DNA of 20,000 nt, from IMG/VR virus record IMGVR_UViG_3300035670_008414; one strand, given 5' to 3'. The notes under the pieces were generated by a model that saw nothing but the letters and a program-made list of their open reading frames with translations, had not been told where the DNA came from and did not search any database. Origin of the DNA: an uncultured virus (IMG/VR IMGVR_UViG_3300035670_008414) (Duplodnaviria > Heunggongvirae > Uroviricota > Caudoviricetes). The position numbers were made by a program, and so were the translations under genes. Shown piece by piece: positions 1 to 19,851 of this stretch (position 1 is the stretch's first letter; each line of letters opens with the position of its first letter).

Positions 1-204
1 ATTTGTGATGAGTATGCTTCATGCCCTAATAAATTAAGAAAATGGAGTGAAAGAGATTTGTATTTGAATGATTATAGTGTGGTTACTCCTTTCAAGCAAA
101 ATATGTTCTTAGGATTAAAAGAAGATGCTGTAAAGCCTTTCGATTTTTCAATGCTTAAAACTTATGAAATAGAGGAAGGTTGTAAGGGCAAGTGCGATAT
201 TTAA
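1..204 (+). CDS. 3' end of a hypothetical protein (5'-truncated) with a Cys-containing C-terminus
   Basis: Frame 1 is open from base 1 to TAA at 202-204: ICDEYASCPNKLRKW...EIEEGCKGKCDI*. Not in the ORF track; translated by hand. Confidence 0.7.
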   Translation: MCDEYASCPNKLRKWSERDLYLNDYSVVTPFKQNMFLGLKEDAVKPFDFSMLKTYEIEEGCKGKCDI

Positions 205-311: not shown

Positions 312-452
312 ATGGCAAAGAAAGACAACACTAATCGGATGAAAATGATTTCATCTTTAGCAAAAAAAATGTATCAAGAAGGTAAAGCTAAAAAATGGAC
401 TGATGCTATTAAAAAAGCTAGTGCAGAATTAAAAAAGCAGGGTAAAATCTAA
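312..452 (+). CDS. Small Lys-rich basic protein (46 aa), putative DNA-binding/condensing protein
   Basis: Hand translation: MAKKDNTNRMKMISSLAKKMYQEGKAKKWTDAIKKASAELKKQGKI*. It has an A-rich leader (aaaaaaaaatcATG), and its TAA overlaps the next ATG (TAATG, 450-454). The function is inferred from composition. Confidence 0.75.
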   Translation: MAKKDNTNRMKMISSLAKKMYQEGKAKKWTDAIKKASAELKKQGKI

Positions 453-688
453 TGATAGATGAAAATGAAATAGTTGAAACTAATGTAAAGGAGTTGCAAA
501 AAAGTCAAACAGTTAGACTGATTGATGTATTTGTAATTGCTCCTATTTGTGTTTATGCTGGTTTCAAATATTCAAAGACTATGCCTTATTGGTTAAGTTT
601 GAGCCTGATTGGTATAGGACTTGCGACTTTTGTTTATAATGGAAAAAATTATTTAGAGAATAAAAATAATTTAAAATTAGTTGAGTAA
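452..688 (+). CDS. Small membrane protein with two predicted TM helices
   Basis: Hydrophobic segments LIDVFVIAPICVYAGF and WLSLSLIGIGLATFVY; coupled by TAATG at both ends. Confidence 0.8.
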   Translation: MIDENEIVETNVKELQKSQTVRLIDVFVIAPICVYAGFKYSKTMPYWLSLSLIGIGLATFVYNGKNYLENKNNLKLVE

Positions 689-2466: not shown

Positions 2467-2480
2467 CTCAAAAAACAATC

Positions 2481-2894
2481 ATGGCAAAAAAATCAAAAAC
2501 TCCTAGTAGAGATAAAAAAGTTAAGGCAAAGCCTTCTGGTTATCGTTTTAAAACTAAGGACATCGAGGGATTAACTAAAAAAGATGGTACTCTAAACAAA
2601 AAGGGTAAAAAATTATATTTTAAAAGACCTACAAAAGCAGAGGTAGAAAAATATAAGAAGCAAGATGGGGAATACCCTAGTGAAACAAAACAAGTTTACA
2701 AAGAAGTAAGAGAGGAAAGAGGGGATGCTAACTTGAAAAAAAAGTTTAACGAAGGAGGTAATGTAGTAGTTGAAATGAGCATAGAAGAAATGAGAAATGC
2801 TTTAGGTAGAGAGCCTAAATATCCTTATGATTTTATTGCAGGTAAAAAATACACAAAGTGTTTTTTAAGACCATACTATAAAACCGAAGAATAA
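2481..2894 (+). CDS. Basic Lys/Arg-rich protein with an FNEGG motif and a shared C-terminal domain; putative nucleic-acid-binding core protein
   Basis: The N-terminus MAKKSKTPSRDKKVKAKPSGYRFK is very basic. The C-terminus LGREPKYPY...FLRPYYK matches the end of ORF 688..2466. Confidence 0.75.
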   Translation: MAKKSKTPSRDKKVKAKPSGYRFKTKDIEGLTKKDGTLNKKGKKLYFKRPTKAEVEKYKKQDGEYPSETKQVYKEVREERGDANLKKKFNEGGNVVVEMSIEEMRNALGREPKYPYDFIAGKKYTKCFLRPYYKTEE

Positions 2895-2900
2895 AAAATT

Positions 2901-3203
2901 ATGAGTAAGGAATTAAAAATAATTTTAGCAACAATAGGAGTAACTGCTGGTGCTTATTTTTTATATGATTTTTATAAAAGATATAGACTTGAAAAAGCTT
3001 TAGGTAATTGTGCTGATTTTATAAAGGATGGATTTGTTTACGATACTAACTACCAACAAAGTTATTCAAAGAAAGCTGGAGATTGGGCAGGTTGTAATGT
3101 CGTAAATGATGAAAGCAATCCAGCTTATTATAAAGCAATAAATACTAAAAGTCAATCTATTAGGCTTTTAAAGAGTGATGTATTACTTAGAAATCCATTA
3201 TAA
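2901..3203 (+). CDS. Membrane-anchored hypothetical protein (N-terminal TM)
   Basis: IILATIGVTAGAYFLY followed by basic KRYR. Confidence 0.75.
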   Translation: MSKELKIILATIGVTAGAYFLYDFYKRYRLEKALGNCADFIKDGFVYDTNYQQSYSKKAGDWAGCNVVNDESNPAYYKAINTKSQSIRLLKSDVLLRNPL

Positions 3204-3214
3204 AAATATTCAAT

Positions 3215-3775
3215 ATGAATAGAGAATTATTGATGAAAAGAGATGAGCTACTACAAAATGAGCTAATGAAAAAAGAAGAATCTGAAAATAAATTAGATTC
3301 TATTTTAGCTTCTGGCAGGTGGATAGCTTCGACAGGAGAAGAAATTACTGAAAATTCAACTCCAGATATGGATGATTGGGGATGGGATGATTACTGGTCT
3401 TGCGAAGATTGGATGGCATGGCATAAAATAATGAAAGAAAAAAAGGGTAAGCAATTTGCCGATTCTACTTTTTTAAGTTGGTGGAACAAATTAGGTAGCT
3501 TTGCAGCAACTTATAATTGTCGTTCTTTTAATACAGCTTTTAGAGATTACTTTAGAAAAGAAAATTTATTATCTGCTTTATATTCTGGTATTGGAATAAT
3601 TGCTGCTCCTATTGGAGTAGGTACTGATGTAGCTGGTGCTGCTTCTGATGTAATAGTTGGAACAGCACAAGGAGTAGGTTCGGTTGCTAAGACATTAAAA
3701 TATTTAGTTCCTATATTAGTTTTAGGAGGAGTAATTTATGGAGGATTTTATATTTATAAACAATTAAAAAAATAA
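3215..3775 (+). CDS. Trp-rich hypothetical membrane protein with a C-terminal TM anchor
   Basis: DDWGWDDYWSCEDWMAW...SWWNK core, a Gly/Ala/Val-rich hydrophobic stretch, and terminal YLVPILVLGGVIYGGFYIYKQLKK. Confidence 0.75.
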   Translation: MNRELLMKRDELLQNELMKKEESENKLDSILASGRWIASTGEEITENSTPDMDDWGWDDYWSCEDWMAWHKIMKEKKGKQFADSTFLSWWNKLGSFAATYNCRSFNTAFRDYFRKENLLSALYSGIGIIAAPIGVGTDVAGAASDVIVGTAQGVGSVAKTLKYLVPILVLGGVIYGGFYIYKQLKK

Positions 3776-3779
3776 AAAA

Positions 3780-3971
3780 ATGAATACACTAGGAAAAGTA
3801 GTTGATGCAACAGTATTAGTAGGCTCAACAATCGTTGGTTATCAAGCAATTAAAACAATTTCTGCTGGTATTAAAAGCAAAAGTACAACAGTAACAGTTT
3901 TAGGCTCTATTACTTTATTGATTGGTATTTATGCTTTTAAAGAAGCTATGAGAAAGATAAACGAGGAATAA
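3780..3971 (+). CDS. Small membrane protein (two hydrophobic segments)
   Basis: VVDATVLVGSTIVGY and VTVLGSITLLIGIYAF; tightly packed between its neighbours. Confidence 0.7.
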   Translation: MNTLGKVVDATVLVGSTIVGYQAIKTISAGIKSKSTTVTVLGSITLLIGIYAFKEAMRKINEE

Positions 3972-3982
3972 TATTTTTAAAA

Positions 3983-4681
3983 ATGAAAAAAAATAAAACT
4001 TTACTTTGGGTAGGTATAGCTTCTGCATTATTAATTGGTGGAGGGTTGTTTTGGCTTTTTAAAACTAAAAAAGAAGCCGAAGAATTAGAAAAAAAGAAAA
4101 AAGAAGAAGAAGAAAAATTAAAGGAACAAGAGCAACCTGTTTCTATACCTCAAAGCACTTCAATAGTATCAGAAAGTCCATTTAAAAATAAAATTGAAGG
4201 AGATAAATTTAGAAAGTGGATGCAATCATTTGCACCTAGCTTTAGGGATTCTCAGGGAGAAAAATTAGACCCTTCTGGAAGTTTTAATAATAGAACTATT
4301 ATTGAAGCTTATGAAATGTATAAAAACGAATATGCTTCATTTTTATCTGGAAAACCAGCAAATCAAAATAATGCTTCTACCACTTCCTCTACTAGTTCAT
4401 TGAAAAGTGGAGATACTATTTATAGTAAAAAAGTTGGTAATTTAGGGATTTATAATATTCCATCGACAAGAGCTTATGTAGGTAATACTATAATAAGAGA
4501 AAAAGAAAAATCTAATCCAATAGGAACATTTATTTCTGATTCAACAGAAGGTTTCGCAAAAGTTAAGATAAATATTCCATACTATATTGATTTTACAAGT
4601 CCTACTAAAGCTTTTGGTTGGAATGAAACTCCTAAAGAGTTTTATGTTTTCAAGAGTTTTATAACAAATAAGAAACCATAA
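3983..4681 (+). CDS. Membrane-anchored protein: N-terminal TM, charged coiled coil and two small domains separated by Ser/Thr/Pro linkers
   Basis: LLWVGIASALLIGGGLFWLF; KKEAEELEKKKKEEEEKLKE; linker ASTTSSTSS before a beta-rich C-terminal part. Confidence 0.75.
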   Translation: MKKNKTLLWVGIASALLIGGGLFWLFKTKKEAEELEKKKKEEEEKLKEQEQPVSIPQSTSIVSESPFKNKIEGDKFRKWMQSFAPSFRDSQGEKLDPSGSFNNRTIIEAYEMYKNEYASFLSGKPANQNNASTTSSTSSLKSGDTIYSKKVGNLGIYNIPSTRAYVGNTIIREKEKSNPIGTFISDSTEGFAKVKINIPYYIDFTSPTKAFGWNETPKEFYVFKSFITNKKP

Positions 4682-4700
4682 AAATTATATTTACCTCTAA

Positions 4701-5141
4701 ATGAAAGAAGGAAGAAATAGAGTATATGTAGCAAAAGAAAAACTTGAACTATTAAGACCTAATAGTAAGAGTGATGGATTTTTGGAAAAAGATGATGCTA
4801 TTTATGTTATTAAAAGATTTAAGATTGATGATAAGAGTTATTTTCAATTTAGAGTAATTAAATTTTTTGAAACTAAAAATGAAACAAATACTTATACTTC
4901 CGAAATAAAATATTTTAAAAAGATGTTTCCAAAGATTGAAAAATCTTCAATAACAGGAGAAACTGAAAATAGTAACAAAAAAAATTATAAAGTTCCTATA
5001 CTAACTACATTAGGAGGAGGAGCTTTAGGTTATCTTTTTGGAAATAAGTTCGGAGGTACTATTAAATGGATTATAGGAGGGATGATTATAGGCGGTGCAG
5101 TTGGGATATATTTAATTAAAAATAAAGATGAAAAAAAATAA
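4701..5141 (+). CDS. Membrane protein with a C-terminal glycine-zipper hairpin
   Basis: TLGGGALGYLFG and WIIGGMIIGGAVGIYLI (GxxxG repeats). Confidence 0.75.
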   Translation: MKEGRNRVYVAKEKLELLRPNSKSDGFLEKDDAIYVIKRFKIDDKSYFQFRVIKFFETKNETNTYTSEIKYFKKMFPKIEKSSITGETENSNKKNYKVPILTTLGGGALGYLFGNKFGGTIKWIIGGMIIGGAVGIYLIKNKDEKK

Positions 5142-5613
5142 AGGAATTGTAATTATCGGTGGCTTATTACTTTTAGGAGTTGGATTATATTTTATTTTTA
5201 GAAAGCCTAAGAAAAAAATAGAAGATAAAAAAATAGGAGAATCTAAGATTTTAAAAGATGCTTATGATAATCTTGTATTTGAAACAAATAAAGATGTTAT
5301 AAAGCCAGTTTCATTTCCTTTTTTAGATGAAGTTGCTAATGTATTAAGGGAAGCTCCTACTTGGACACTAAACCTAGAAGGACATACCGATAATGTAGGT
5401 TCTGATTCATACAACTTAGATTTATCTCAAAAAAGAGCCGATGCAGTAAAGAAATATTTGGTTGAACAAGGAATATCAGAAAATAGGATAACTGCTAAAG
5501 GATTTGGAGAAAGTAAGCCGATAGCTGATAATTCTACTCCAGAGGGTAGAGAAAAAAATAGGAGAGTAGAATTTAAGATTGTAAAAACAAATATTCAAAG
5601 TATTTTAGTGTAA
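5128..5613 (+). CDS. OmpA-C/MotB/Pal-like peptidoglycan-binding domain protein with an N-terminal TM anchor (no beta-barrel)
   Basis: Canonical OmpA_C motifs: FETNKDVIK, EGHTDNVGSDSYNLDLSQKRADAVKKYL, GFGESKPIADN..EGREKNRRVEF. N-terminal TM is IVIIGGLLLLGVGLYFIF. Confidence 0.95.
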   Translation: MKKNKGIVIIGGLLLLGVGLYFIFRKPKKKIEDKKIGESKILKDAYDNLVFETNKDVIKPVSFPFLDEVANVLREAPTWTLNLEGHTDNVGSDSYNLDLSQKRADAVKKYLVEQGISENRITAKGFGESKPIADNSTPEGREKNRRVEFKIVKTNIQSILV

Positions 5614-6002
5614 TGGATTTTAGCAAGATTAAGAATAATAAAGCTATACAAATAGGTCTTATAATAATAGTTCCAACTGTTATTGTAGCAGGATATTTTG
5701 GATATAAATTTGTCAAAAGAAAAATTGATGAAAGAAAAGAAAGTCAATTTGTATTAGACATGAGGGAAAAATATAAAAACATAAACAATGTTGATGATTT
5801 TATAGAAGGGATTAAGTATGTTAAGCAACCTATTCAATACGGATATGACTTGAAATTATTTCAAAATTTGAAAGAAAAATTGAATGATTTCGATTTTGAA
5901 GAAATTAAAGACATATATGAGCTAATTAAAAAGCCTTTGAATGAAAGAAATGAAGAAGAAAATCAAAAAGTATTGATTTTTTTAAGTAATATAACTGAAT
6001 AA
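5613..6002 (+). CDS. Membrane-anchored hypothetical protein (N-terminal TM plus a helical domain)
   Basis: IGLIIIVPTVIVAGYFGY then KFVKRK; TAATG coupling with the OmpA-C gene. Confidence 0.75.
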   Translation: MDFSKIKNNKAIQIGLIIIVPTVIVAGYFGYKFVKRKIDERKESQFVLDMREKYKNINNVDDFIEGIKYVKQPIQYGYDLKLFQNLKEKLNDFDFEEIKDIYELIKKPLNERNEEENQKVLIFLSNITE

Positions 6003-6004
6003 TC

Positions 6005-6532
6005 ATGGAATTTACACCGAAACTTAGAAATAGATTAATTATTGGAGGTTTAGCTGTTGCTGGTATTACATTGTTACTTTATTTAAGGAGACAATATAAC
6101 TTGTTATATAATGCTGTTTACACAATATCTGGGGGTATAATTCATAATTTGGGATTAGATAAGGTAAAAATGACCTTGTTCCTTAAAATAGCTAATGAAA
6201 GCGATTTAATGATTGAAATTTCAAATTTAGATTTGAGTATTTATGTAAATAAAATGTTTATTACAAGGATTAAAAGACCTGAAAAACAAGTTATTCAAGC
6301 AAAATCCGATGCTATTATAAAATTAGATGTTGAATTTAATCCTAAAGACTTATTGAAAGCAGGATTAACAAACATAGAGCCAATACTTTATGATAATGAA
6401 AAGCTTGTTATTACTACTAAGGGAACTCTATCAGCTAAAACTGGAATTGTTACCTTAACTAAATTTCCTTTTTCTGTTGATATTACTCTAAAAGAATTGT
6501 TAGAGCCATCTCCAGAAAAGAAAAAAAAGTAA
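6005..6532 (+). CDS. LEA_2/WHy-like beta-sandwich protein with an N-terminal TM anchor
   Basis: TM LIIGGLAVAGITLLLYL, followed by the pattern LFLKIANESDLMIEISNLDLSIYVNKMFI...IQAKSDAIIKLDVEF. This resembles the LEA_2 'LxIxNPxxxxIxIxxxxxxIyvNg' pattern, although the NP proline is absent. Confidence 0.65.
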   Translation: MEFTPKLRNRLIIGGLAVAGITLLLYLRRQYNLLYNAVYTISGGIIHNLGLDKVKMTLFLKIANESDLMIEISNLDLSIYVNKMFITRIKRPEKQVIQAKSDAIIKLDVEFNPKDLLKAGLTNIEPILYDNEKLVITTKGTLSAKTGIVTLTKFPFSVDITLKELLEPSPEKKKK

Positions 6533-6562: not shown

Positions 6563-6925
6563 ATGATAAGAGAAACATTGCAAAATGCTATTCGTTCTTT
6601 AAGTAATAAACATGGTATTAGCGAAAAAGATTTAAGAATTGCTATTTCGAGACCTAATAAAAATCTCCGATATGAAATAATGAAAAATGGAGATGTTTTA
6701 GAGGAAACAAATATTGCAACTGCCTTAAATCTAAATTCTATTGTTGCATTTATGGTTGGTAATAGAATCAATGCTATTGTTGATAGTATAGCAAAAGATT
6801 ATAAAATAGACCAATCAAAATTGAATGTAAGAATTTACACTAAGACTGAGGATTGTGAACCATTACTTTACTTATTTGAAGGGAAAACACCTGTTACAGC
6901 ATTGGATTTGAATAAATTTATTTAA
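6563..6925 (+). CDS. Hypothetical protein
   Basis: 120-aa ORF in operon context with an A-rich leader; no recognised motif. Confidence 0.7.
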   Translation: MIRETLQNAIRSLSNKHGISEKDLRIAISRPNKNLRYEIMKNGDVLEETNIATALNLNSIVAFMVGNRINAIVDSIAKDYKIDQSKLNVRIYTKTEDCEPLLYLFEGKTPVTALDLNKFI

Positions 6926-7218: not shown

Positions 7219-9732
7219 ATGGAAATATCAAATTTTGGATGGACTAGTGGTTCTGGAGGAGGAGGAGGAGGAGGAAATGCAGTAATATTATTAGGCGCTG
7301 GTTCGGGAAGTTCTTATAGATGTGGAAATGGAAATACTTCATCTGGAAGTTATTCTACTATTTCTGGAGGTCGTAATAATTCGACAAGTTCATATTATAA
7401 TACCATATCTGGTGGATATGCAAATACAATTTCTGCTTATAGTTTAGCATCAACAATAGCTGGAGGAACAAACAATTCTTCTTTTAGAAATCATGAATTT
7501 ATTGGGGGTGGTTGTTTTAATATAACTGGTAATCCTATAAATAAAGCTGGATTTAATGTCATTGGCGGAGGTTGTTTAAATAATAATTCTGGCACATATT
7601 CTTTTATTGGTAGTGGTTCATGTAATTACAATACTAGTGATTTTGCTGTAATTTCAGGAGGTAAATTTAATTCCATATCATGTAGTTATTCATCAATAAG
7701 TGGAGGTTATTTAAACTCAATAAGTGCGAGTTATTCTACTGTTTCTGGAGGTCGTAGCAATACAGCATCGGGATATGCTTCATTCATAGGAGGTGGAGGT
7801 TCAAACTCAGCTTCTGGAAATTATTCAAATATAAGTGGAGGTAATAATAATACTGCATCGGGAAATTATTCAAATATATCTGGAGGTCGTAGCAATACAG
7901 CATCGGGATATGCTTCATTCATAGGAGGTGGAGGTTCAAACTCAGCTTCTGGAAATTATTCAAATATAAGTGGAGGTAATAATAATACTGCATCGGGAAA
8001 TTATTCAAATATATCTGGAGGTGCTGGTAATACTGCTTCTACATTTTACACAAATGTAAATGGAGGTGTTAATAATAATTCTGCATCAGATTATTCAGTT
8101 ATTGGTGGTGGTAAATTAAACACAATAAATCCATTCTCAACTTGTTCATTAAATCCAATTATCGGTAATGTAATTGCTGGTGGGAATCAAAATACTATAA
8201 ATTCAAATAGTGCTTACTATGGAGCAGCAGGAGGGGTAACAATTAGTGGAGGTTATAATAATACTACTAATTCAGGATATTATGGTTTCAATACAACAAG
8301 TGGAGGTTATCAAAATACCATAAGTGGAAATTACCATGTAATATCTGGAGGTACTTTAAATTCAATTAGCTCTAATTATAATTCATTTTTAGGAGGGGGG
8401 TTTAATAATCAAGTGTCTGGAGACAGGTCATTAGTTATTGGTGGTTCTAATAATGTAGTATCTAATAGTGATTCAATTATCGGAGCAGGTGATTCTAATG
8501 TAATTTCTGGGTATAATTCTTCTATTTTTGGGGGGAGTAATTCTCAGATATTCTCTGATTATTCATTTATTGGAGCAGGAAATAATAACTGTATTTTAGG
8601 AGCTAAACCAAATAATTCAGATTACTCGGTAATATCAGGAGGTCGGCAAAATTATATTTGTCCAAATTCAAACTACTCAACTATTTCGGGAGGTTATTGT
8701 CATTTTACAAAAGGAAGAAGCACAACTATATCAGGGGGTTATAAAAACTTTGTTGATGATTGTAATTTAGGTGGGGTTGGAGTTCAGTTTGCTACTGATA
8801 ACAATGCTGTAATAAGTGGAGGTTTCTGCAATAAAATTTATCATAGAGTTTGTTCAGGAATAACCTCTGGCAAAGCTTTAGGTAGTAGTACAATAGCAGG
8901 TGGTAAATGCAATATAAGTGGAGTTGAAATTACTTCTAATGGACAACAAACAGGATTTTCAACTGTGTCTGGAGGATATTGTAATACTGCTAGTTTTAAT
9001 GCTTCAAGTGTCGGAGGAGGATTTTGCAACTTGGCTCAAGGAAACTACGCAACTATTAGTGGGGGTAATAGTAATAGTGTAACTGCTAACTCATCAAACA
9101 TAGGTGGTGGTTCATGTAACTTAGTTAATTCTATATATTCTAATATTTCAGGAGGAGATTCAAACAATGTTTGTTCAGATAGCTCTGCAATTTTAGGAGG
9201 TAGATTTAATACAACTTGTTCTAATTATTCAGCAATAATAGGAGGAACTCAAGGATTAACATATTCTTATGGACAAATAGCAAATGCTTCTGGTTATTTT
9301 GCAACTATTGGGGATGCTCAATCTTCAAAATCTATTTTAAGAAAATCAGCGACATTAAATTCAGCAATTACTTCTCAATTGTTTACTGATGGTAATGCAG
9401 GTCTTTTAACTCCTAATGGGAATGATAGACTTTGGAATGTAATGGTTAAATGGGCGATTGTAACAACTTCGGTTGGTGCTGGTACAGGAACATTAGGAGA
9501 TGTTATTTATGGAACTGATATATTTTTCTTTAAAAGAGTAGGAGGAACTGGAAGTATAAGTACCCAAACTAGAATAGCAAGTCAATCTGATGCTAGTATG
9601 TCCACAGCAGACATTCAGTATAGTGTTGGAGGTTCAAATGATTTAAAAATTGATATGCTTTCTCCTACTACTGCTAATGGAACTACATTTAGAGCAATAG
9701 CAACAGTTTATTTTGAGGAAGTAGCTTGGTAA
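7219..9732 (+). CDS. Gly/Ser/Asn-rich repeat protein (15-aa ISGGxxN units; putative beta-solenoid fibre/spike) with a distinct C-terminal domain
   Basis: Dozens of units like STISGGYxNTASGxY, a poly-Gly linker near the N-terminus and a non-repetitive C-terminal ~150 aa. Confidence 0.8.
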   Translation: MEISNFGWTSGSGGGGGGGNAVILLGAGSGSSYRCGNGNTSSGSYSTISGGRNNSTSSYYNTISGGYANTISAYSLASTIAGGTNNSSFRNHEFIGGGCFNITGNPINKAGFNVIGGGCLNNNSGTYSFIGSGSCNYNTSDFAVISGGKFNSISCSYSSISGGYLNSISASYSTVSGGRSNTASGYASFIGGGGSNSASGNYSNISGGNNNTASGNYSNISGGRSNTASGYASFIGGGGSNSASGNYSNISGGNNNTASGNYSNISGGAGNTASTFYTNVNGGVNNNSASDYSVIGGGKLNTINPFSTCSLNPIIGNVIAGGNQNTINSNSAYYGAAGGVTISGGYNNTTNSGYYGFNTTSGGYQNTISGNYHVISGGTLNSISSNYNSFLGGGFNNQVSGDRSLVIGGSNNVVSNSDSIIGAGDSNVISGYNSSIFGGSNSQIFSDYSFIGAGNNNCILGAKPNNSDYSVISGGRQNYICPNSNYSTISGGYCHFTKGRSTTISGGYKNFVDDCNLGGVGVQFATDNNAVISGGFCNKIYHRVCSGITSGKALGSSTIAGGKCNISGVEITSNGQQTGFSTVSGGYCNTASFNASSVGGGFCNLAQGNYATISGGNSNSVTANSSNIGGGSCNLVNSIYSNISGGDSNNVCSDSSAILGGRFNTTCSNYSAIIGGTQGLTYSYGQIANASGYFATIGDAQSSKSILRKSATLNSAITSQLFTDGNAGLLTPNGNDRLWNVMVKWAIVTTSVGAGTGTLGDVIYGTDIFFFKRVGGTGSISTQTRIASQSDASMSTADIQYSVGGSNDLKIDMLSPTTANGTTFRAIATVYFEEVAW
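7255..7275 (+). repeat. (GGA)7 trinucleotide repeat encoding poly-Gly
   Basis: ggaggaggaggaggaggagga read directly. Confidence 0.9.
7744..8022 (+). repeat. Perfect 135-bp tandem duplication (2 copies plus 9 bp), equal to three 15-aa repeat units
   Basis: 7744-7878 is identical to 7879-8013 (tctggaggtcgtagcaatacagcatcggga...ggaaattattcaaatata). Confidence 0.95.
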
Positions 9733-9743
9733 AAAATTAATTT

Positions 9744-10079
9744 ATGGCAATAGATTTATTACAAAAAACAACATTAGATATTAACACTCAATTAGCCAGT
9801 TATGGTTTATTGATAACCGATGCTACTAAATTGGTATTAATGAATGTTGGTAGTGGAAACAACTTAACTATACCATTAAATAGTTCAGTACCATTTCCAA
9901 TAGGCACTCAAATAGTGGTTGGTCAATATGGAAGTGGACAAACTACTTTTGTAGCGACTGGTGGAGTAACATTAATAAGTGCTGGTGGAAAAACTAAATT
10001 AAATGCTCAATATTCTATGGCAACATTAATTAAGATTGCCACAGATGAATGGATTTTATCGGGAGATATAACTACTTAA
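9744..10079 (+). CDS. Stand-alone beta domain resembling the C-terminal domain of phage fibre/collagen-like proteins
   Basis: Motifs TIPLNSSVPFPIGTQIVVGQYGSGQTT and QYSMATLIKIATDEWILSGD resemble a domain I recall from environmental phage fibre proteins; not verified by search. Confidence 0.6.
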   Translation: MAIDLLQKTTLDINTQLASYGLLITDATKLVLMNVGSGNNLTIPLNSSVPFPIGTQIVVGQYGSGQTTFVATGGVTLISAGGKTKLNAQYSMATLIKIATDEWILSGDITT

Positions 10080-10089
10080 AAATATAATT

Positions 10090-10308
10090 ATGACAAAGGT
10101 TGGACTTTTAACAATAGCTCAAAAGGATGAATTAGTAGGACAATGGTTTGCTCCAGATTCATATTTTAATCCTATTCAAGACATCAATGATGATTGGGTA
10201 ATATCGACACAAGAAATGGAGCAATGTGTTAATCCTGATTTTATGTGGGTTAAAGATTTACCTTTAATTGATTATGTTCCAAAGCCACAGCCAGAACCTC
10301 CAATATGA
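10090..10308 (+). CDS. Small acidic protein, possible partner or chaperone of the downstream fibre-like proteins
   Basis: 72 aa with FNPIQDINDDWVIS and a Pro-rich end; ATGA overlap with ORF 10305. Confidence 0.7.
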   Translation: MTKVGLLTIAQKDELVGQWFAPDSYFNPIQDINDDWVISTQEMEQCVNPDFMWVKDLPLIDYVPKPQPEPPI

Positions 10309-10501
10309 TTACAGCATTAGCAGGAGTAGTAGCAAGTTCAATATCTCAGGTCGCACCTTATGACCCTGATGCACAAGCTTTTTTTACTGCTGAATCTGCG
10401 GCTGGAGTAACACTAACTCCTACACAAGAAACTGCTATAAATAATTTAGTAGTAAACTTAAAGGCTGCTAATATATGGACTAAGTTTAAAGCTTTATATC
10501 C
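10305..10501 (+). repeat. Dispersed direct repeat (5' end of the paralogues); other copy at 11951-12147
   Basis: Ungapped manual comparison gives about 14 mismatches over ~197 nt. Confidence 0.85.
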
Positions 10502-11936
10502 AGTAGTAGGAGGAACTGCCACAGCTCACAAATTTAATCTTAAAAATCCTGCCGATACTGATGCGGCTTTCAGATTAGCCTTTAGTGGGGGATGGATACA
10601 TTCGGCAACAGGAATGAAACCTAATGGAACTAATACTTTTGCAAACACTTTTTTATCAGCATCAGCAAATTTTACTATTTACAACACTCATCTGAGTGTT
10701 TACTCTCGTACACAATCAACAGGTACAAACGAATTTGATATGGGGTATTTTGCAAATGGGGTTTCAAGTTTTTTATTATCCGCTTATACTGGTTCGGTAG
10801 GTTCTGCATTGTCAGACCAATACTCAAATACACAATCTAGGTTACAATATGTCAATACTAATACTTTAGGACATTACATTGGTAATAGACTAGCAGCAAA
10901 CAATCATAAACTGTATAAAAATGGTTCTCAGGTAGCATCTACAACTTCTTCAAGTAATTTAGGTTTGACAAATCAATTCCTATACTTAGCAGCATATAGA
11001 AGCGGAACATCAGCTTTTGGGAACTCATTAAGAGAACAAGCATTTGCATCAATAGGAGAGGGATTAACTGATACTGAAGCTCAGTTGTTTTATCAAATAG
11101 TTGAAGGTTATCAATATGAACTAGGAAGAAATATTAATCCTACTTTGTCATTCTACTATAATCCTGCTTATAATAATGAGACTAATCTTTTCTTATATTC
11201 TACTCAAATAACAGATACAACAATTCAAACAGCAACAAATACATTAGTTTCCGATTTAAAAACTGCTGGAATTTGGACTAAAATGAGAGCTATATATCCA
11301 ATGGTAGGTGGCACAGCAACTACTCATAAATTTAATCTTGTTAATTCACAGGATTCTAATGCTGCATATAGATTAAATTTCTTAGGAGGATGGATTCATT
11401 CAAGCACAGGTGCTAAACCAGATGGTATTAACTCTTATGCTCAAACATTCTTAGTACCTTCTATATTAGGTTTATATTTAATGTCTATTGGTTATTATTC
11501 TAGAACAAACTCAGTAGGTAATCTTGTTGATATGGGAGTTATTAATGGTGCAGCTTCAAATAATCCTACTTTGGAAATGTATATAAGAGTATCTGGAGAT
11601 ATTATGCAGACTTGGATGAGTAAGCCAAACTCAGGTAGGCTTCAAACATCAGTAACTGATTCAAGAGGTTTCTTTGTTCAAGCATCAAATGGTACAACAA
11701 CACAAACAGCATATAAAAATGGAGTTTCTTTAGGTTCTAATGCAGTAACAGGATTAGCAATAAATACGTATGGTATTTTCTTAGCTGCTGAAAATGGAAC
11801 TGGAACAGCTAACCAATATTCAAATAGAGAATGTGCATTTTCTTTCATAGGAGATGGTTTATCTTCAATCGAAGTCTCAAGTTTATATACTATTGTTCAA
11901 AATTTCAACACAACTCTCGGCAGACAAGTGCCTTAA
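10305..11936 (+). CDS. Putative virion receptor-binding/lectin-like protein with two ~260-aa units (possible ConA/LamG-like core)
   Basis: Each unit has a helical start, W[TS]K..A[LI]YP.VGG.A..HKFNL, F.GGW.HS, YSRT and AF..IG.GL motifs, and a variable beta-rich middle. Confidence 0.7.
   Translation: MITALAGVVASSISQVAPYDPDAQAFFTAESAAGVTLTPTQETAINNLVVNLKAANIWTKFKALYPVVGGTATAHKFNLKNPADTDAAFRLAFSGGWIHSATGMKPNGTNTFANTFLSASANFTIYNTHLSVYSRTQSTGTNEFDMGYFANGVSSFLLSAYTGSVGSALSDQYSNTQSRLQYVNTNTLGHYIGNRLAANNHKLYKNGSQVASTTSSSNLGLTNQFLYLAAYRSGTSAFGNSLREQAFASIGEGLTDTEAQLFYQIVEGYQYELGRNINPTLSFYYNPAYNNETNLFLYSTQITDTTIQTATNTLVSDLKTAGIWTKMRAIYPMVGGTATTHKFNLVNSQDSNAAYRLNFLGGWIHSSTGAKPDGINSYAQTFLVPSILGLYLMSIGYYSRTNSVGNLVDMGVINGAASNNPTLEMYIRVSGDIMQTWMSKPNSGRLQTSVTDSRGFFVQASNGTTTQTAYKNGVSLGSNAVTGLAINTYGIFLAAENGTGTANQYSNRECAFSFIGDGLSSIEVSSLYTIVQNFNTTLGRQVP
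11092..11270 (+). repeat. Dispersed direct repeat (inter-unit linker); other copy at 12732-12910
   Basis: Ungapped manual comparison gives 11 mismatches in 179 nt. Confidence 0.9.
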
Positions 11937-11950
11937 TAATTAATTAAATT

Positions 11951-14371
11951 ATGATTACAGCATTAGTAGGAGTAGTAGCAAGTTCAATATCTCAGGGTTC
12001 GCCTTATGACCCTGATGCACAGGCTTTCTTTACTGCTGAATCTGCGGCTGGAGTAACACTAACTCCTACTCAAGAAACTGCTGTAAATAATCTAGTAGTA
12101 AACTTAAAGGCTGCTGGTATATGGTCTAAGTTTAGAGCTTTATATCCTATTGTTGGAGGAACTGCCACAGCTCATAAGTTTAACTTAATAAATCCTGCTG
12201 ATACTGATGCTGCATTTAGATTTCAATTTTTTGGAGGATGGGTACATTCTGCAACTGGTATGTTAGGAAATACTAGTTTAAATACTTATGCGAATACATT
12301 TTTAAATCCATCTGCTCAAGGATTTGGGCAAAATGAAGGTAGTTATGGTATTTATTCAAGGACTATTAGAACAGGTAGCGATAGTAAACAACATGGTGTT
12401 TTTACTTCTGGAGTAGGATATGCTCTATTAATACCTAGAAACACAGCTCAAAATACTCAAAATTTTCATAATAGCACTACATCAGTTCAAATAACAAATG
12501 TTAATACTGCTGGAATGTTACAAATGTCCAGAACAAGTTCTACTAACACTTTTCAATCAAGAGATAGTTATGTTCAATCAGTTTCTGTAACATCTACTGG
12601 AGTTCCAAATGCTAATTTTTATTTTGGAGCAAGGAATAATGGAACTGGAGCACAAGTTTATGATGATATTGAGTTATCACTTTGTTATATTGCTAAAGAT
12701 GGGTTTACTTTAACAGAGTTACAAGTTATAAATCAAATAGTAGAAGGTTATCAATATGAACTAGGAAGAAATATTAATCCTGCTCAGTCATTCTACTATA
12801 ACCCTGCTTATAATAACGAGACTAATGCTTTCTTATATTCTACTCAAATAACAGATACAACAATTCAAACAGCAACAAATACTTTAGTATCAGATTTAAA
12901 AACTGCTGGAGTATGGACAAAGATGAAGGCTGTTTATCCTATGGTCGGAGGAACAGCAACTACTCATAAGTTTAATTTAGTTAATCCAGCAGATGCAAAT
13001 ACAGCATTTAGACTAAGCTTTATAGGTGGGTGGACACATACTTCTAATGGTATTCAAGGTAATGGTACTAATAATGTAGCTGATACATTCTTAACTCCTT
13101 CTGCTGTTTTATCTTTAAATAACACTCATACATCTATATATAGTAGAACTAATAATGCTGTAAATTATATTTTTGATGTAGGCACTCAAGATACTTCTAA
13201 TAATACTATTTCTTTAGCATTAAGAGATGCTAGTAATGGAGGATTAACAAGAATTAATGAAAGTTTTTCTGCAAATTGGGGGACTAATACAAACTCAGCT
13301 TGTTTCTATTTAGGTAATAGAACTGCTTCTAATGTTAGAAAAACATTTATTAATAATGCTTTAGTAAATACTAATTCTACTGCTTCAACTGCATTACCAG
13401 TTACAAAAATTGGTATAGGTGCAAATTATTATAATAATACACCAGCAAGTTCTAATTTCTTTTCAAATAGACAATATACTTTTGTTAGTATAGGCGATGG
13501 TTTGACAGACACAGAATCATTAAACTTATATACAGCAGTTCAAAATTTCCAAACTACTTTAGGTAGAGCTATATTTTTAACTCCACCAACAGTAAGTGAT
13601 TCAGATGCACAAGCCTTTATAAATGCTGCAAATATTTTAGACCAAGTAGAAGCTCCTGCTATAAATAATTTAGTTATAGGTTTAAAAGCTGATAATTTGT
13701 GGACTAAAATGAAAGCTATCTATCCTATGGTTGGTCAAATAGCTACCTCACAAAAGTATAACTTAAAAGACCCTCAAGATACTAATGCTGCGTTTAGGTT
13801 AAATTTTACTGGAGGATGGACACATAGTTTTAATGGAGTTTTGCCAAATGGTACTAATGCCTATGCTAATACTTTTTTGCCATTTAATACTATGAATAGT
13901 AATTCTCAACATCTTAGCTATTATTCAAGAACTAATTTAACAGCACAAAATTATTTTGAAATGGGATGCGGAGATAATTCAAGTATAGCATCTGCGATTA
14001 TAATGAGTTATGGAAGTGGACTAGGTTCATTAACAAGAATAGGTCAAACATTTTCAACAAATTTTACTCCAACAAAAACAGATTCTATGCATATTGTTAG
14101 TGCAAATTCTACAAATGTTTCTCGTGTATTTGAAAATGGTATTTATAAAGGTCAAAATACTGGAACTAGAACTGATTTAGGCAATAGATTTTATTATTTA
14201 GGAGCAGCAAATCAAAACGCAAGCAATACAAATAATGGTACTGCATTATTTTATACAACAAGACAATGCGCCTTTGCTTCAATTGGAACAGGATTAACAG
14301 ATACAGAAGCAGCTAACCTATATACTAGAGTACAAACATTTAACACAGCCTTACAAAGACAAGTGCCTTAA
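11951..14371 (+). CDS. Paralogue of ORF 10305 with three ~260-aa units; putative receptor-binding/lectin-like protein
   Basis: Near-identical N-terminus (MITALxGVVASSISQ..PYDPDAQAFFTAESAAGV), the same unit motifs and the same RQVP C-terminus. Confidence 0.7.
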   Translation: MITALVGVVASSISQGSPYDPDAQAFFTAESAAGVTLTPTQETAVNNLVVNLKAAGIWSKFRALYPIVGGTATAHKFNLINPADTDAAFRFQFFGGWVHSATGMLGNTSLNTYANTFLNPSAQGFGQNEGSYGIYSRTIRTGSDSKQHGVFTSGVGYALLIPRNTAQNTQNFHNSTTSVQITNVNTAGMLQMSRTSSTNTFQSRDSYVQSVSVTSTGVPNANFYFGARNNGTGAQVYDDIELSLCYIAKDGFTLTELQVINQIVEGYQYELGRNINPAQSFYYNPAYNNETNAFLYSTQITDTTIQTATNTLVSDLKTAGVWTKMKAVYPMVGGTATTHKFNLVNPADANTAFRLSFIGGWTHTSNGIQGNGTNNVADTFLTPSAVLSLNNTHTSIYSRTNNAVNYIFDVGTQDTSNNTISLALRDASNGGLTRINESFSANWGTNTNSACFYLGNRTASNVRKTFINNALVNTNSTASTALPVTKIGIGANYYNNTPASSNFFSNRQYTFVSIGDGLTDTESLNLYTAVQNFQTTLGRAIFLTPPTVSDSDAQAFINAANILDQVEAPAINNLVIGLKADNLWTKMKAIYPMVGQIATSQKYNLKDPQDTNAAFRLNFTGGWTHSFNGVLPNGTNAYANTFLPFNTMNSNSQHLSYYSRTNLTAQNYFEMGCGDNSSIASAIIMSYGSGLGSLTRIGQTFSTNFTPTKTDSMHIVSANSTNVSRVFENGIYKGQNTGTRTDLGNRFYYLGAANQNASNTNNGTALFYTTRQCAFASIGTGLTDTEAANLYTRVQTFNTALQRQVP

Positions 14372-14389
14372 TAATTAAAAATATAAATC

Positions 14390-15337
14390 ATGTTCCCATT
14401 TTCAAGAACATTATCAGCAGGAACTCATCAGATTACAGTATCAGATTCAAATATATTGTGTGATACATCATCTGGAGTTGTAAATTTGATATTGCCTTCA
14501 ATAAGTGATATTTTAAATTTTATATCTATTCAAGGGTATAGTATAGGTTCTATTGGTATATTTTCTTTGAATGTTACCGATATTTCAAATAATGCTTCGG
14601 TAAATAATATTAATATTTTATTAGCATCTGGAAATTATTTCTCAAATAATCTTTCATCAGTTTCTATTGATAGCAACAATGGTAATTTGTCATTAAAGCC
14701 AATATCAGAAACACTATGGAGTGTATTTAATTCATCAAATCCACTAGTTTTAACTACAATAGGTACTAGTGGAGCATCTACATTAAATGGAAATGTATTG
14801 AATATTCCTATTTATACCCCATCTTTGAATTATGGATTATTTGCTCAAACTGCTAATAGTCCTATAATAACTGCCACTACCACAGAATCAACTTTAATAG
14901 ATGGTGGAGTAGGAACTTTATCAGTTCCCCCAAATGGTTTTCAAATAGGGGATAGCTTTCAAGCGGTCATGGGAGGTATAATGTCTGCTCAAAATAACAA
15001 CACTATTACTATAAGAGTAAAGTCTGGAAGTGTAGTTTTAGCTGATTCAGGAGCATTAACGATGCCACAAATTACAAATCAAGTATGGAATCTAACTATT
15101 TCTTTTACAATTAGAAATATAGGTAATGCAGGTGTAGCTTCGATAACAACTATTGGAGAATTTCTTGTACTTAAATTAGCAAGTGGAAATCAAGAGGGTT
15201 TTGGTTTTACAACAATAAATAATACAACTTTTAATACTACTATTGCTAATACATTAAATATTACAGCTCAATGGAGTTCAAATAATATTAATAATTCCAT
15301 TTATAGTAATACATTCATTCTAAACAAAATTTACTAA
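14390..15337 (+). CDS. Two-domain putative virion structural/fibre protein
   Basis: The N-terminal ~115 aa (MFPFSR...LCDTS...TDISNNAS.NNIN...SLKP...W) are shared with ORF 15365. The C-terminal domain is Thr/Asn-rich and beta-like (NYGLFAQT...). Confidence 0.7.
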   Translation: MFPFSRTLSAGTHQITVSDSNILCDTSSGVVNLILPSISDILNFISIQGYSIGSIGIFSLNVTDISNNASVNNINILLASGNYFSNNLSSVSIDSNNGNLSLKPISETLWSVFNSSNPLVLTTIGTSGASTLNGNVLNIPIYTPSLNYGLFAQTANSPIITATTTESTLIDGGVGTLSVPPNGFQIGDSFQAVMGGIMSAQNNNTITIRVKSGSVVLADSGALTMPQITNQVWNLTISFTIRNIGNAGVASITTIGEFLVLKLASGNQEGFGFTTINNTTFNTTIANTLNITAQWSSNNINNSIYSNTFILNKIY

Positions 15338-15364
15338 ATTTATAAACTAATAAAAACAAAAAAT

Positions 15365-16507
15365 ATGTTTCCTTTTTCGAGAGTTTTTGAAGCTGGTTCG
15401 CATCAACTAACAACAACTGATTTGAATGTTTTGTGCGATACCTCAGTAGGTAGTGTTACTATTATACTTCCTAAAATAAGTGAGTTATTAGACCTTGTAT
15501 TAAAGCAAGGATATAGTGTAGGTGCTAATGGAGTATTTACAGTAAATATAACTGATATATCAAATAACGCATCTACAAACAATATAAATGTAGTTGCTTT
15601 TGCAGGAGATTACTACTCAGGTAATATTCCTTCGGTAGTTATTAATGAAAATAGTGGAAATGTTTCATTAAAGCCTGTTTACAATAATTTTTGGCAAGTA
15701 ATTTATGGAAATGGAGTGTCTGGAAGTGGAGCAAATAATGCAGTAATATTATTAGGTTCTGGTACTGGAAGCTCTTATAGATGTGGCAACAATAATATTT
15801 CATCTGGATTATTTTCGACAGTATCTGGAGGTTGTGGAAATAGTGCGAGTGGATATAGCTCAACAATAAGTGGAGGATATGGTAATACTGCAAGTAATTA
15901 TTCATCAACAATAAGCGGAGGTTATGGGAATACAGCAAGTGGTTATTCATCAACAATAGCAGGGGGTAGAGTTAATACTATTTCTAATAATTATGGAACA
16001 ATAAGTGGAGGTTATAATAATAATATAAGTGGTGCTAATTCAACAATAAGTGGAGGTTATACTAACACTATAAGTGGTTATTTATCAACAATAGGTGGGG
16101 GTAGTAAAAATTGCATTACCGAATGTTATTCGACAGTTAGTGGAGGTTATCAAAATTGTGTTCTATCTACTTTCTCAACAATATCGGGTGGACTTTTAAA
16201 TAGAGTAAGTGGAAGTCAAGCATCAATCTCTGGAGGATATTCAAACTGTGCAGGTTCAACATTCTCTTTTGTTGGAGGAGGGTGTGGAAATAAAGCTGTT
16301 TCTACTGGCTCAGCAATTCTAGGAGGAACAAATAATGACACTACTGGATTTGTTTGTGCTATGATTGTGGGTGATAATATAGCTGCCGATAGAGATTGCA
16401 CTACATTTGTAAATAACTTATCAATTAAAAATATTCCTGCAAGTTCTGTGGGATTACCAAGTGGTTCAGTTTGGAAAAATGGAACTGTTTTGGAAATAGT
16501 ACCATAA
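15365..16507 (+). CDS. Chimeric fibre-like protein: MFPFSR N-domain, ISGGxxN repeat region and a short C-terminal cap
   Basis: The N-domain is homologous to ORF 14390. The NAVILLG.G.GSSYRCGN.N cap and 15-aa repeats are homologous to ORF 7219. It ends TTFVNNLSIKNIPASSVGLPSGSVWKNGTVLEIVP. Confidence 0.75.
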   Translation: MFPFSRVFEAGSHQLTTTDLNVLCDTSVGSVTIILPKISELLDLVLKQGYSVGANGVFTVNITDISNNASTNNINVVAFAGDYYSGNIPSVVINENSGNVSLKPVYNNFWQVIYGNGVSGSGANNAVILLGSGTGSSYRCGNNNISSGLFSTVSGGCGNSASGYSSTISGGYGNTASNYSSTISGGYGNTASGYSSTIAGGRVNTISNNYGTISGGYNNNISGANSTISGGYTNTISGYLSTIGGGSKNCITECYSTVSGGYQNCVLSTFSTISGGLLNRVSGSQASISGGYSNCAGSTFSFVGGGCGNKAVSTGSAILGGTNNDTTGFVCAMIVGDNIAADRDCTTFVNNLSIKNIPASSVGLPSGSVWKNGTVLEIVP

Positions 16508-16539: not shown

Positions 16540-17433
16540 ATGACAAAAGAAAAATACATTGTTTTCATTGTAAACGGAGGAGCAGGTAAAAATGTAATGG
16601 CAACTGCTGTGGTAAAAGCTATTAAAAATAACAATCCAGATTATAAAATAATAGTTGTTACTGCATGGAAAGAAATCTGGCTTTATAATCCTAATGTTTA
16701 TAGAACATTTGTATTTGGTCAAACTCCAAACTTCTATTTGGACTATATTAAAGACCAAGATGTTGTAATTCATGGACTAGAGCCTTATTCTACTACCGAT
16801 TATTTATTAAAGAAAAAAAACTTAATAGAAATTTGGTGCGATTTAGTAGGAGTTCAATATAACAATGAAAAACCTGAATTATTCTTTAATCAAAGAGAAG
16901 TTGAATACACAATAAACAAATTTAATTTAGGGCAATCTCCTTTAATGCTTTTACAAACTAACGGAGGTGGAGGGCAACAAAACACTAAATTTTCATGGAT
17001 GAGAGATATGCCTTTAAACTTAGCAACCGAAGTTGTAAATGCTTTCATAAGTAATTTTAATATACTTCATATCCGTAAAAATGACCAGCCAGTAATTAAT
17101 GGAATTAAATCTTTTGAAGGTAATTTAAGGGAATTAATGACTTTGATTAAATTCTCAAATAAAAGATTATTTATTGATAGTGTTTGTCAGCATATTGCTG
17201 CTGCTTTAAATAAAGAATCATGTGTTTTATGGATTAGAAACGAGCCAAGTGTTTTAGGTTACAGCTTACATGATAACATAATCACAAAAGTAGAAGATGA
17301 AATTAATGTATTAGGAGATAGTTTCTTAGAGCCTTATGATATTACTGGAAATGTTTATCAATGTCCATTTAAAGAAGGAACTAAACTATTTGATGCAGAA
17401 GAAATAATTAACTCAATTAAAAATCAAAACTAA
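16540..17433 (+). CDS. GT9-like (heptosyltransferase-like, GT-B fold) glycosyltransferase
   Basis: N-terminal VNGGAGKNVMATAVVKAIK..NPDYKIIVV and C-terminal FIDSVCQHIAAALNKESCVLW match the GT9 patterns GxxGDxxxxxP and DSGxxHxAxA in divergent form. Confidence 0.75.
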   Translation: MTKEKYIVFIVNGGAGKNVMATAVVKAIKNNNPDYKIIVVTAWKEIWLYNPNVYRTFVFGQTPNFYLDYIKDQDVVIHGLEPYSTTDYLLKKKNLIEIWCDLVGVQYNNEKPELFFNQREVEYTINKFNLGQSPLMLLQTNGGGGQQNTKFSWMRDMPLNLATEVVNAFISNFNILHIRKNDQPVINGIKSFEGNLRELMTLIKFSNKRLFIDSVCQHIAAALNKESCVLWIRNEPSVLGYSLHDNIITKVEDEINVLGDSFLEPYDITGNVYQCPFKEGTKLFDAEEIINSIKNQN

Positions 17434-17439
17434 AATAAA

Positions 17440-17739: not shown

Positions 17740-17769
17740 TAACCAACCAAAGAACTATTTTTAAGACAA

Positions 17770-18405: not shown

Positions 18406-18417
18406 AAACCAAAGAAA

Positions 18418-19322: not shown

Positions 19323-19676
19323 ATGCAAATTGTCATGGATGAAAAATTGTCATTAAAACAACTTCAAAACCATTTGATTAAAACGATATTAGGAGCTTTT
19401 GGTGTTGCTATTTTAGGTGCGGTAATAACTTCATATACTTTTTATTATAACACAAATTATAATCTTAAAGAGCTTAATCAAAACAAGATTGAAACAAGTC
19501 AGGATATTAAAGAGTTGAAAAAAGATGTTTCAGAAATTAAAATTTCATTGTCAAATACAGGATTGAATACAACAAGTAATCAGAGAGAAATTGATGAACT
19601 TAAATCTGATATAAAAGATATAAAGAAAAGTCAAGAAGAAATGATGAGATTGCTTGTTACAATAAGCAAAAAATAG
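19323..19676 (+). CDS. Single-pass membrane protein with a coiled coil
   Basis: TILGAFGVAILGAVITSYTFYY followed by heptad-like IKELKKDVSEIK and IDELKSDIKDIKK. Confidence 0.75.
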   Translation: MQIVMDEKLSLKQLQNHLIKTILGAFGVAILGAVITSYTFYYNTNYNLKELNQNKIETSQDIKELKKDVSEIKISLSNTGLNTTSNQREIDELKSDIKDIKKSQEEMMRLLVTISKK

Positions 19677-19677
19677 T

Positions 19678-19851
19678 ATGCAATTAAATCCTAATACATT
19701 ATCTGATATACAAAAGGATATTAAAACTGGTAGAATACTAGGACTAACTATGGGACTTTTATTTTTAGGTTTTAGCTTATATGCCTACTCATTATCTATA
19801 AAAGCTAATAAATTATCAATAAAAAAATTAAAAGATGAAGGCTATGAATAG
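19678..19851 (+). CDS. Small single-pass membrane protein (57 aa)
   Basis: Hand translation: MQLNPNTLSDIQKDIKTGRILGLTMGLLFLGFSLYAYSLSIKANKLSIKKLKDEGYE*. A 1-nt gap separates it from the previous stop. Not in the ORF track. Confidence 0.7.
   Translation: MQLNPNTLSDIQKDIKTGRILGLTMGLLFLGFSLYAYSLSIKANKLSIKKLKDEGYE

Follow-up and report, generated by a model that had tools for sequence, protein, structure and literature searches.

Eight consecutive membrane protein genes as a likely part of the virion membrane module of a large Bacteroidota virus that is probably tailless

What could eight consecutive genes for small membrane proteins be doing in a virus that is catalogued among the tailed phages? 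The question is posed by positions 2901 to 6532 of a 20,000-nucleotide stretch of DNA (hereinafter, the window) from the uncultured virus record IMGVR_UViG_3300035670_008414, which is assigned to Caudoviricetes. The record (G000) is a fragment of more than 72 kb, with a guanine-plus-cytosine (GC) content of 29%, and is 59% complete according to CheckV. These genes likely belong to a module for the virion membrane and for entry in a large virus of Bacteroidota that is probably tailless, with a predicted shell of single-jelly-roll proteins around a lipid vesicle and an ATPase of the FtsK/HerA type that would fill the particle with DNA.

The eight open reading frames (ORFs), denoted here by their start positions, nearly abut, with gaps from -14 to +19 nucleotides (Table 1). 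As the first-pass annotation claimed from the sequence alone, all of them contain predicted transmembrane helices: a hydrophobic segment of at least 1.0 on the GES scale (a TopPred-like cut-off) is present in each, and seven pass the stricter Kyte-Doolittle cut-off of 1.6 over 19 residues, the remaining one, ORF 2901, having a maximum of 1.41 and an uncharged stretch of 16 residues with a mean of 1.79. The five ORFs that had been credited with a common N-terminal anchor (2901, 3983, 5128, 5613, and 6005) were recovered as the same five, helices of the same type are found at the C-terminus of ORFs 3215, 3780, and 4701, and the three further membrane proteins named at that stage (ORFs 452, 19323, and 19678) have predicted helices as well. 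Across the record, 31 of the 84 ORFs scored as membrane proteins, which is at most an indirect indication of a lipid vesicle such as internal-membrane viruses carry within an icosahedral, tailless particle. A run of at least eight such ORFs appears in 0.83% of 20,000 shuffles of the gene order, so the run is unusual even for a record this rich in membrane proteins; there are two such runs, one of 10 genes upstream of the window and the present one, which itself belongs to a larger membrane block that spans ~20 kb. The sequenced DNA of this region is real: between positions 2400 and 7400, 29 of the 30 bins are covered by near-identical contigs from two sequencing runs not flagged as the source of the record, and among the 24 listed differences inside ORFs, to which 17 weaker ones can be added, 16 affect the third position of a codon and 14 leave the amino acid unchanged.

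Originally, the run was interpreted as the virion membrane module of either a double-jelly-roll-type or a novel membrane-containing virus, which would be expected to encode a jelly-roll capsid protein and an ATPase of the FtsK/HerA/A32 type. The membrane module part of this interpretation is supported, and both proteins have candidates, but the predicted capsid protein (C1:37793 of the record) contains a single jelly roll, unlike those of PRD1, PM2, and FLiP, and the virus is several-fold larger than these models. This protein of 267 amino acids (aa) has 353 homologs, with 50-98% identity among the 120 listed. Its model is an eight-strand sandwich, with a predicted local distance difference test score of ~85-90 over most of residues 75-220, that forms one barrel (residues ~73-222) between low-confidence ends. 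Of the 11 best fold matches, eight are viral jelly-roll proteins, and the best one is a 124-residue chain of PR772 which, judging by its length, is probably the penton domain of P5 (PMC6750898). No capsid proteins of Halopanivirales are among the 50 fold matches listed, although a relationship to their vertical single jelly-roll proteins (VP4/VP7 or VP16/VP17) is still conceivable, and neither the capsid candidate nor the ATPase has a sequence match among solved structures and GenBank phages. The matches obtained in a Foldseek comparison of the capsid candidate with viral models were poor and driven by the disordered ends (template modeling score of at most 0.29 by query), and were discarded.

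Jelly-roll paralogs number one in the record and about 10 in the longest relative. The former, a 584-aa protein with a large insertion, was aligned by hhalign with the capsid family alignment A1 at a probability of 51% and an E value of 1.5e-4. The protein encoded at C1:27057, which resembles these paralogs by eye, yielded no alignment and is not counted among them. Directly before the inserted paralog, in the record (C1:50298-51110; L003:13298-14110) and in all five long relatives described below, is a gene for a 270-aa protein with an HExxH motif and no Pfam or PHROG match, a candidate maturation protease. A 699-aa protein of the longest relative (G003:C16:106897-108996) contains up to four tandem jelly-roll-like segments. 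The ATPase (C1:26209) is a stand-alone protein of 283 aa that matches PF01935 above the cut-off (E 7e-6) and in which, in alignment A2, the motifs that we take to be Walker A, Walker B, Arg-His, and Gln are conserved. It accordingly belongs with the FtsK/HerA superfamily ATPases of double jelly-roll viruses and Halopanivirales and may function in DNA packaging.

Given that the record is a fragment, the absence of tailed-phage head genes is judged mainly from its relatives. Five long ones carry the jelly-roll gene: G001 (102 kb), G002 (97 kb), G004:C131 (149 kb), G005:C48 (109 kb), and G003:C16 (375 kb). All five also encode the HExxH protein, the inserted jelly-roll paralog, and the LEA_2 protein. 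The ATPase gene is present in three; the remaining two are fragments without the corresponding region. Six further virus records carry the ATPase, and the jelly-roll gene was found in all five that were tested; one ATPase-bearing relative, of 63 kb, has inverted terminal repeats. The gene order is conserved, with the membrane run located between the jelly-roll paralog and the fiber genes. The 127-bp terminal repeat of G005:C48 indicates that this genome is circular. With profiles from PHROGs and Pfam, no terminase, portal, HK97 capsid, or sheath protein, the first three of which were to be looked for according to the first-pass annotation, was detected in the 133 ORF pieces of at least 90 aa of this circular genome, in the 131 pieces of at least 230 aa of G003:C16, or among 79 proteins of the record. 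A six-frame Pfam search with three terminase models, one portal model, and one capsid model was blank in G000-G003 and G005, with control genomes positive. A weak terminase match in the bin of G004 is below the cut-off and on another contig. At the profile level, then, the large terminase subunit, portal, and HK97 capsid that define Caudoviricetes were not found. Several observations nevertheless count against a tailless virus and in favor of a tailed phage with highly divergent or missing head and tail genes, in which the membrane proteins would be accessory or ejected: the incompleteness of the record, matches to tail fiber and, weakly, tape measure PHROGs, the Atlas neighbors of ORF 3215, which are mostly Uroviricota where the phylum is recorded, and the polyvalent proteins, which are common in tailed phages. 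With the circular 109-kb and the 375-kb relatives both free of any tested head gene, and with the small FtsK/HerA-type ATPase traveling together with the jelly-roll gene, a tailed phage is quite improbable.

The two relatives that are most informative in this respect differ in their gene content. G005:C48 encodes Rep3, ParB, an integrase, 11 transfer RNAs (tRNAs), a transfer-messenger RNA (tmRNA), and a TIR (CAP12) protein, with no recognized DNA polymerase, and is possibly a plasmid-like resident state. G003:C16 (loci L108-L126), with 375,071 bp and no end repeats, such that it may be even longer, has the same ATPase, jelly-roll, and membrane block together with 34 tRNA/tmRNA genes, NAMPT, RtcB, thymidylate synthase, and homing endonucleases. 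Its GC content is uniform (0.30-0.33) and jelly-roll paralogs extend out to 236, 246, and 350 kb, which, along with the tRNA set, argues against a chimera without excluding one; jelly-roll homologs are also found on contigs of 232,747 and 237,926 bp. The presence of Rep3 and ParB in G005:C48, and of ArdA, SSB, topoisomerase IB, and polyvalent proteins in the record, would also fit a conjugative plasmid or an element similar to integrative and conjugative elements, in which the membrane proteins, transglycosylases, OmpA protein, and ATPase would form a novel mating or secretion channel; type IV secretion is indeed known to employ HerA/FtsK ATPases, SLT, and OmpA domains. We find such an element very improbable. 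No relaxase or Tra/VirB families were detected by Pfam in 126 ORF pieces of G005:C48, and the PF03432 relaxase is found in none of the five genomes (the other relaxase families were covered only in the G005:C48 scan); the ATPase is a single protein without an anchor; and the fiber, endolysin, and jelly-roll paralog genes, together with the tRNA/tmRNA genes of two relatives (12 to 34), are what one would expect of a virus.

The anchor shared by the proteins of the run is a Gly-rich helix capped by aromatic and basic residues. Among the single N-anchored proteins from six viral membrane blocks, Lys and Arg residues are more numerous after the helix than before it in 40 of 57, against 4 of 31 control proteins, and Gly residues amount to 3.1 per 17 residues against 0.5, where the control, 170 kb of other contigs from the bins (metagenome-assembled genomes) of two relatives, consists mainly of signal peptides and the viral proteins are kin. 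The charge bias and Gly content mark a distinct anchor design rather than a measured topology. The C-anchored proteins have the same charge polarity in 37 of 53 cases, which is at odds with a single topology scheme; the N- and C-anchored classes may be oppositely oriented, or the virus may have an insertion route of its own.

The domains attached to these anchors vary. In the syntenic runs of the relatives, as judged from 29 proteins picked by eye, C-terminal anchors are attached to SLT (G001 and G002), phage lysozyme (G003), and glucosaminidase (G005) domains, N-terminal anchors to GDSL esterases (G001 and G003), and there are also unanchored SLT genes. G001 and G002 encode an N-anchored jelly-roll paralog (probability 95.5%) where the record has the OmpA protein. 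Locus L161 retains homologs of ORFs 3780, 3983, 4701, 5128, 5613, 6005, 6563, 6936, and 7219 in this order, and its run additionally includes an inserted gene labeled SLT-like by resemblance and a jelly-roll paralog. The run works as a cassette, with one anchor design and swappable domains.

The most clearly identifiable domain in the run is the OmpA-like domain of ORF 5128 (PF00691, 93 bits against a cut-off of 27), with the Asp/Arg motif at residues 85-103; the conserved Asp and Arg are the residues that bind peptidoglycan in such domains. All 120 best matches (query included) contain this motif and none contains a lipobox; the same N-terminal anchor is present in 117, of which 112 have more Lys and Arg after the helix than before it. 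The best match among solved structures is 5WTP, a Capnocytophaga protein. The short anchor-OmpA form was found in 4 of 65 viral OmpA loci, all four with homologs of the genes of the record nearby (weakly for L164). In three of five distant ATPase-bearing records, the OmpA profile matched anchor stretches only, not OmpA domains, so this domain is not universal. The universal component is ORF 6005, with a LEA_2 domain (PF03168, 34.8 bits against a cut-off of 25.4) and a predicted beta-sandwich that matches 3BUT (Foldseek E 2.2e-7), 1XO8, and TMEM106B; a direct scan of viral contigs with this protein produced no confirmed relative.

The remaining proteins are more enigmatic. ORF 3983 may contain PG_binding_1-like and SH3b-like domains, a guess from the sequence to which an Atlas lead also points (0.87, below the 0.9 bar). 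This reading stayed below every threshold: SH3_3 was matched below the cut-off in three homologs and not in the query, hhalign to a real PG_binding_1 domain gave 3%, and a PDB profile search retrieved only an unrelated cathepsin propeptide (E 0.0045). Homologs of ORF 3215 are present in three of the five relatives (15 sequences after an iterative search of the collected loci) and its Atlas neighbors are unnamed viral clusters; we infer that it is a candidate membrane-remodeling or DNA-delivery protein. ORF 2901 has no homolog among the relatives and collected loci searched, and ORFs 2901, 3780, and 5613 have no family match. A homolog search on an SH3-like reading of ORF 4701 produced two matches only, one being the query itself.

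A virion role for these proteins can be proposed by analogy with PRD1, in which phage membrane proteins collect in the host inner membrane and the pinched-off patch scaffolds the shell, with DNA packed afterwards (PMC6356626), and in which P7 and P15 are lytic transglycosylases associated with the viral membrane (PMC5380687). Late in infection, the proteins of the run would enter the host inner membrane; in the five with an N-terminal anchor, the basic residues that follow the helix would hold the C-terminal domain on the cytoplasmic side. The capsid protein would assemble on the cytoplasmic face and pinch off a protein-rich vesicle, and the domains would end up on its outer surface, beneath the shell. 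On the next host, the fibers would bind and the shell would open; the OmpA domain, and perhaps ORF 3983, would grip the peptidoglycan, anchored hydrolases such as those of the relatives would open the wall at that site, and ORFs 3215, 3780, and 4701, with their Gly-rich helices, might assist in turning the vesicle into a tube or pore through which the DNA enters. The LEA_2 protein, the sole universal member, could handle lipids or serve as a spacer between the membrane and the shell. A tailless jelly-roll virus could also deploy most of the eight proteins in the envelope of the infected cell, for superinfection exclusion, tethering, lysis timing, or release, with OmpA in the periplasm. This is where OmpA domains are normally found; moreover, the N-termini of the N-anchored proteins are also basic (two or three Lys or Arg residues), the anchor-OmpA gene is outside the membrane run at two loci (L162 and L164), and Rep3, ParB, and the integrase of G005:C48 make a resident state in need of exclusion plausible. 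Such a role is unlikely for most of the run, which sits in conserved order between the jelly-roll paralog and fiber genes and, in relatives, holds an anchored jelly-roll paralog itself; furthermore, the charge bias is unlike host export signals, and the 120 best OmpA matches lack a lipobox.

The likely host of this virus is a member of Bacteroidota, judging from start sites and bins. None of 68 start sites has a Shine-Dalgarno-like motif and 49 have A at position -3, and starts of this kind have been reported for Bacteroidetes. Two of the five relatives were binned with Bacteroidota, and a third one with an alphaproteobacterium.

Table 1. Predicted genes and gene blocks in the 20,000-nucleotide window
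Feature	Position	Strand	Remarks
3' end of 584-aa jelly-roll paralog with large insertion (C1:51103-52857)	1..204	+	candidate vertex or minor capsid protein; homologs in 5/5 relatives
78-aa membrane protein	452..688	+	helix score 1.77; homologs in 2/5 relatives
100-aa protein, N-terminal anchor	2901..3203	+	no family, no homolog found
186-aa protein: conserved Trp-rich helical domain, Gly/Ala-rich hydrophobic stretch, C-terminal anchor	3215..3775	+	two segments
63-aa Gly-rich two-helix membrane protein	3780..3971	+	homologs in 2/5 relatives, also L161
232-aa protein: N-terminal anchor, charged linker, possible PG_binding_1-like and SH3b-like domains (weak lead)	3983..4681	+	151 homologs
146-aa protein, C-terminal glycine-zipper helix pair	4701..5141	+	PF05433 E 0.0018, below cut-off; homologs in 2/5 relatives
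161-aa protein: N-terminal anchor and OmpA-like domain with Asp/Arg motif	5128..5613	+	PF00691 E 1.3e-26
129-aa protein: N-terminal anchor, variable C-terminal part	5613..6002	+	similar proteins in 4/5 relatives, partly via anchor alone
175-aa protein: N-terminal anchor and LEA_2 beta-sandwich; family core gene	6005..6532	+	PF03168 E 2.3e-8; 5/5 relatives
120-aa conserved soluble protein after LEA_2 gene	6563..6925	+	homologs directly after LEA_2 in 4/5 relatives, also L161
Repeat-rich/beta-rich gene block, likely receptor-binding spikes or fibers	7219..16507	+	Gly/Ser/Asn repeats; profile matches
Two membrane proteins (117 aa, 57 aa), possibly lysis-related	19323..19851	+	amidase or peptidase adjoins in relatives

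Within the fiber block, ORF 15365 matches adhesin repeats and beta-rolls, and ORF 9744 matches tail fiber and virion protein PHROGs; an 837-aa fiber-like gene contains near-perfect DNA repeats, two copies of a ~126 bp unit (7724-8040). Dense sets of glycosyltransferase, sulfotransferase, APS kinase, and methyltransferase genes (window 16540-19251 and G000:C1:27950-37110) suggest sulfated glycans on the particle or fibers. ORF 19323 has homologs in four of the five relatives, with weak holin/spanin PHROG matches for the pair and an Amidase_2 neighbor in G002. After the jelly-roll paralog, a 46-aa Lys-rich ORF (312-452), possibly a DNA-binding core protein, has small basic counterparts that look similar by eye at the equivalent site of G001, G002, and G003. 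Large cargo-like proteins (window 688-2894 and G000:C1:4729-24304) share repeated aromatic-x-x-GG motifs and a C-terminal PxYP...K.FL.PYY tail, and several bear ART-PolyVal, helicase, or topoisomerase IB domains.

A broader proposal, which we find possible but somewhat short of probable, is that these viruses form a hitherto undescribed lineage of giant, membrane-containing viruses with single-jelly-roll capsids that infect Bacteroidota, from ~63 kb to at least 375 kb, reaching jumbo size without terminase, portal, or tail. Their virion membrane would be decorated from a modular kit, in which a single dedicated anchor helix, inserted in reversed orientation, is fused to exchangeable domains that bind the wall, cut it, handle lipids, or resemble capsid proteins. 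In bacteria, such viruses would parallel the giant jelly-roll viruses known from eukaryotes. If so, widespread freshwater and subsurface Bacteroidota viruses pack 63 to 375 kb via an ATPase-and-vesicle route, which would bear on gigantism among jelly-roll viruses and on the number of such viruses that catalogues wrongly list as tailed phages. The genes of the run would also supply testable parts for how internal-membrane viruses cross the cell wall, namely the OmpA domain, the anchored hydrolases, the universal LEA_2 protein, and the one anchor design. No description of such a group was found in the literature searched, which covered few subscription journals, and the supplementary tables of metagenomic surveys could list such genomes; nor was any paper found that ties LEA_2 to a virus. 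The available text of Yutin 2018 (PMC5894146) describes no such group.

Comparison with known systems shows partial similarity to several of them. G003:C16 resembles jumbo phages (Caudoviricetes above 200 kb) in its size, its 34 tRNA/tmRNA genes, and extras of the NAMPT/RtcB type, but large bacterial viruses are taken to be tailed, jumbo phages being defined as tailed HK97 viruses (2026 review, PMC13359090), whereas this genome lacks any head gene tested. Of the Flavobacterium phages FLiP and phiCjT23, FLiP has a single-stranded DNA genome and no packaging ATPase (PMC5894146), in contrast to the large, ATPase-bearing genomes of double-stranded DNA type described here. The LEA_2/TMEM106B membrane-anchored domains share the N-terminal helix followed by a seven-strand sandwich, and a lipid-binding groove has been proposed for this family, itself a prediction (10.1101/2021.03.12.435176); unlike these, the LEA_2 protein described here is encoded by a core viral gene.

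Tectiviridae (PRD1 and PR772) and Corticoviridae (PM2) differ in their double jelly-roll capsid and small genomes, of about 10-15 kb, and we know of no OmpA or LEA_2 virion-membrane protein in either family. The similarities are in the phage membrane proteins, which collect in the inner membrane of the host and give rise to a vesicle beneath the shell (PMC6356626), and in the membrane-bound muralytic enzymes used for entry (PMC5380687). The Halopanivirales (Sphaerolipoviridae SH1/HCIV-1, Simuloviridae, and Matsushitaviridae P23-77/IN93) are alike in combining a single jelly-roll capsid-type protein, a packaging-type ATPase, many membrane proteins, and spike genes (PMC12643093). They differ in several respects: no sequence similarity was detected; their two major capsid protein types may contrast with one clearly dominant candidate and variable paralogs here; their hosts are extremophiles rather than freshwater and subsurface Bacteroidota; and their genomes are smaller, 28-31 kb (PMC12643093) or 16-19 kb (PMC12642351), compared with more than 72 kb for the record and 63-375 kb among the relatives. 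In particular, Sphaerolipoviridae are haloarchaeal viruses with linear genomes of 28-31 kb and inverted terminal repeats, whereas the record has a low GC content and starts of the Bacteroidota type, and among its relatives the ends are inverted repeats in the 63-kb genome and joined in the circular 109-kb one. Altogether, this virus behaves like an internal-membrane jelly-roll virus, yet falls outside both the double jelly-roll viruses (Tectiviridae, Corticoviridae, Turriviridae, and FLiP) and Sphaerolipoviridae, and the genomes of all bacterial and archaeal membrane-lined jelly-roll viruses compared are near or under 31 kb.

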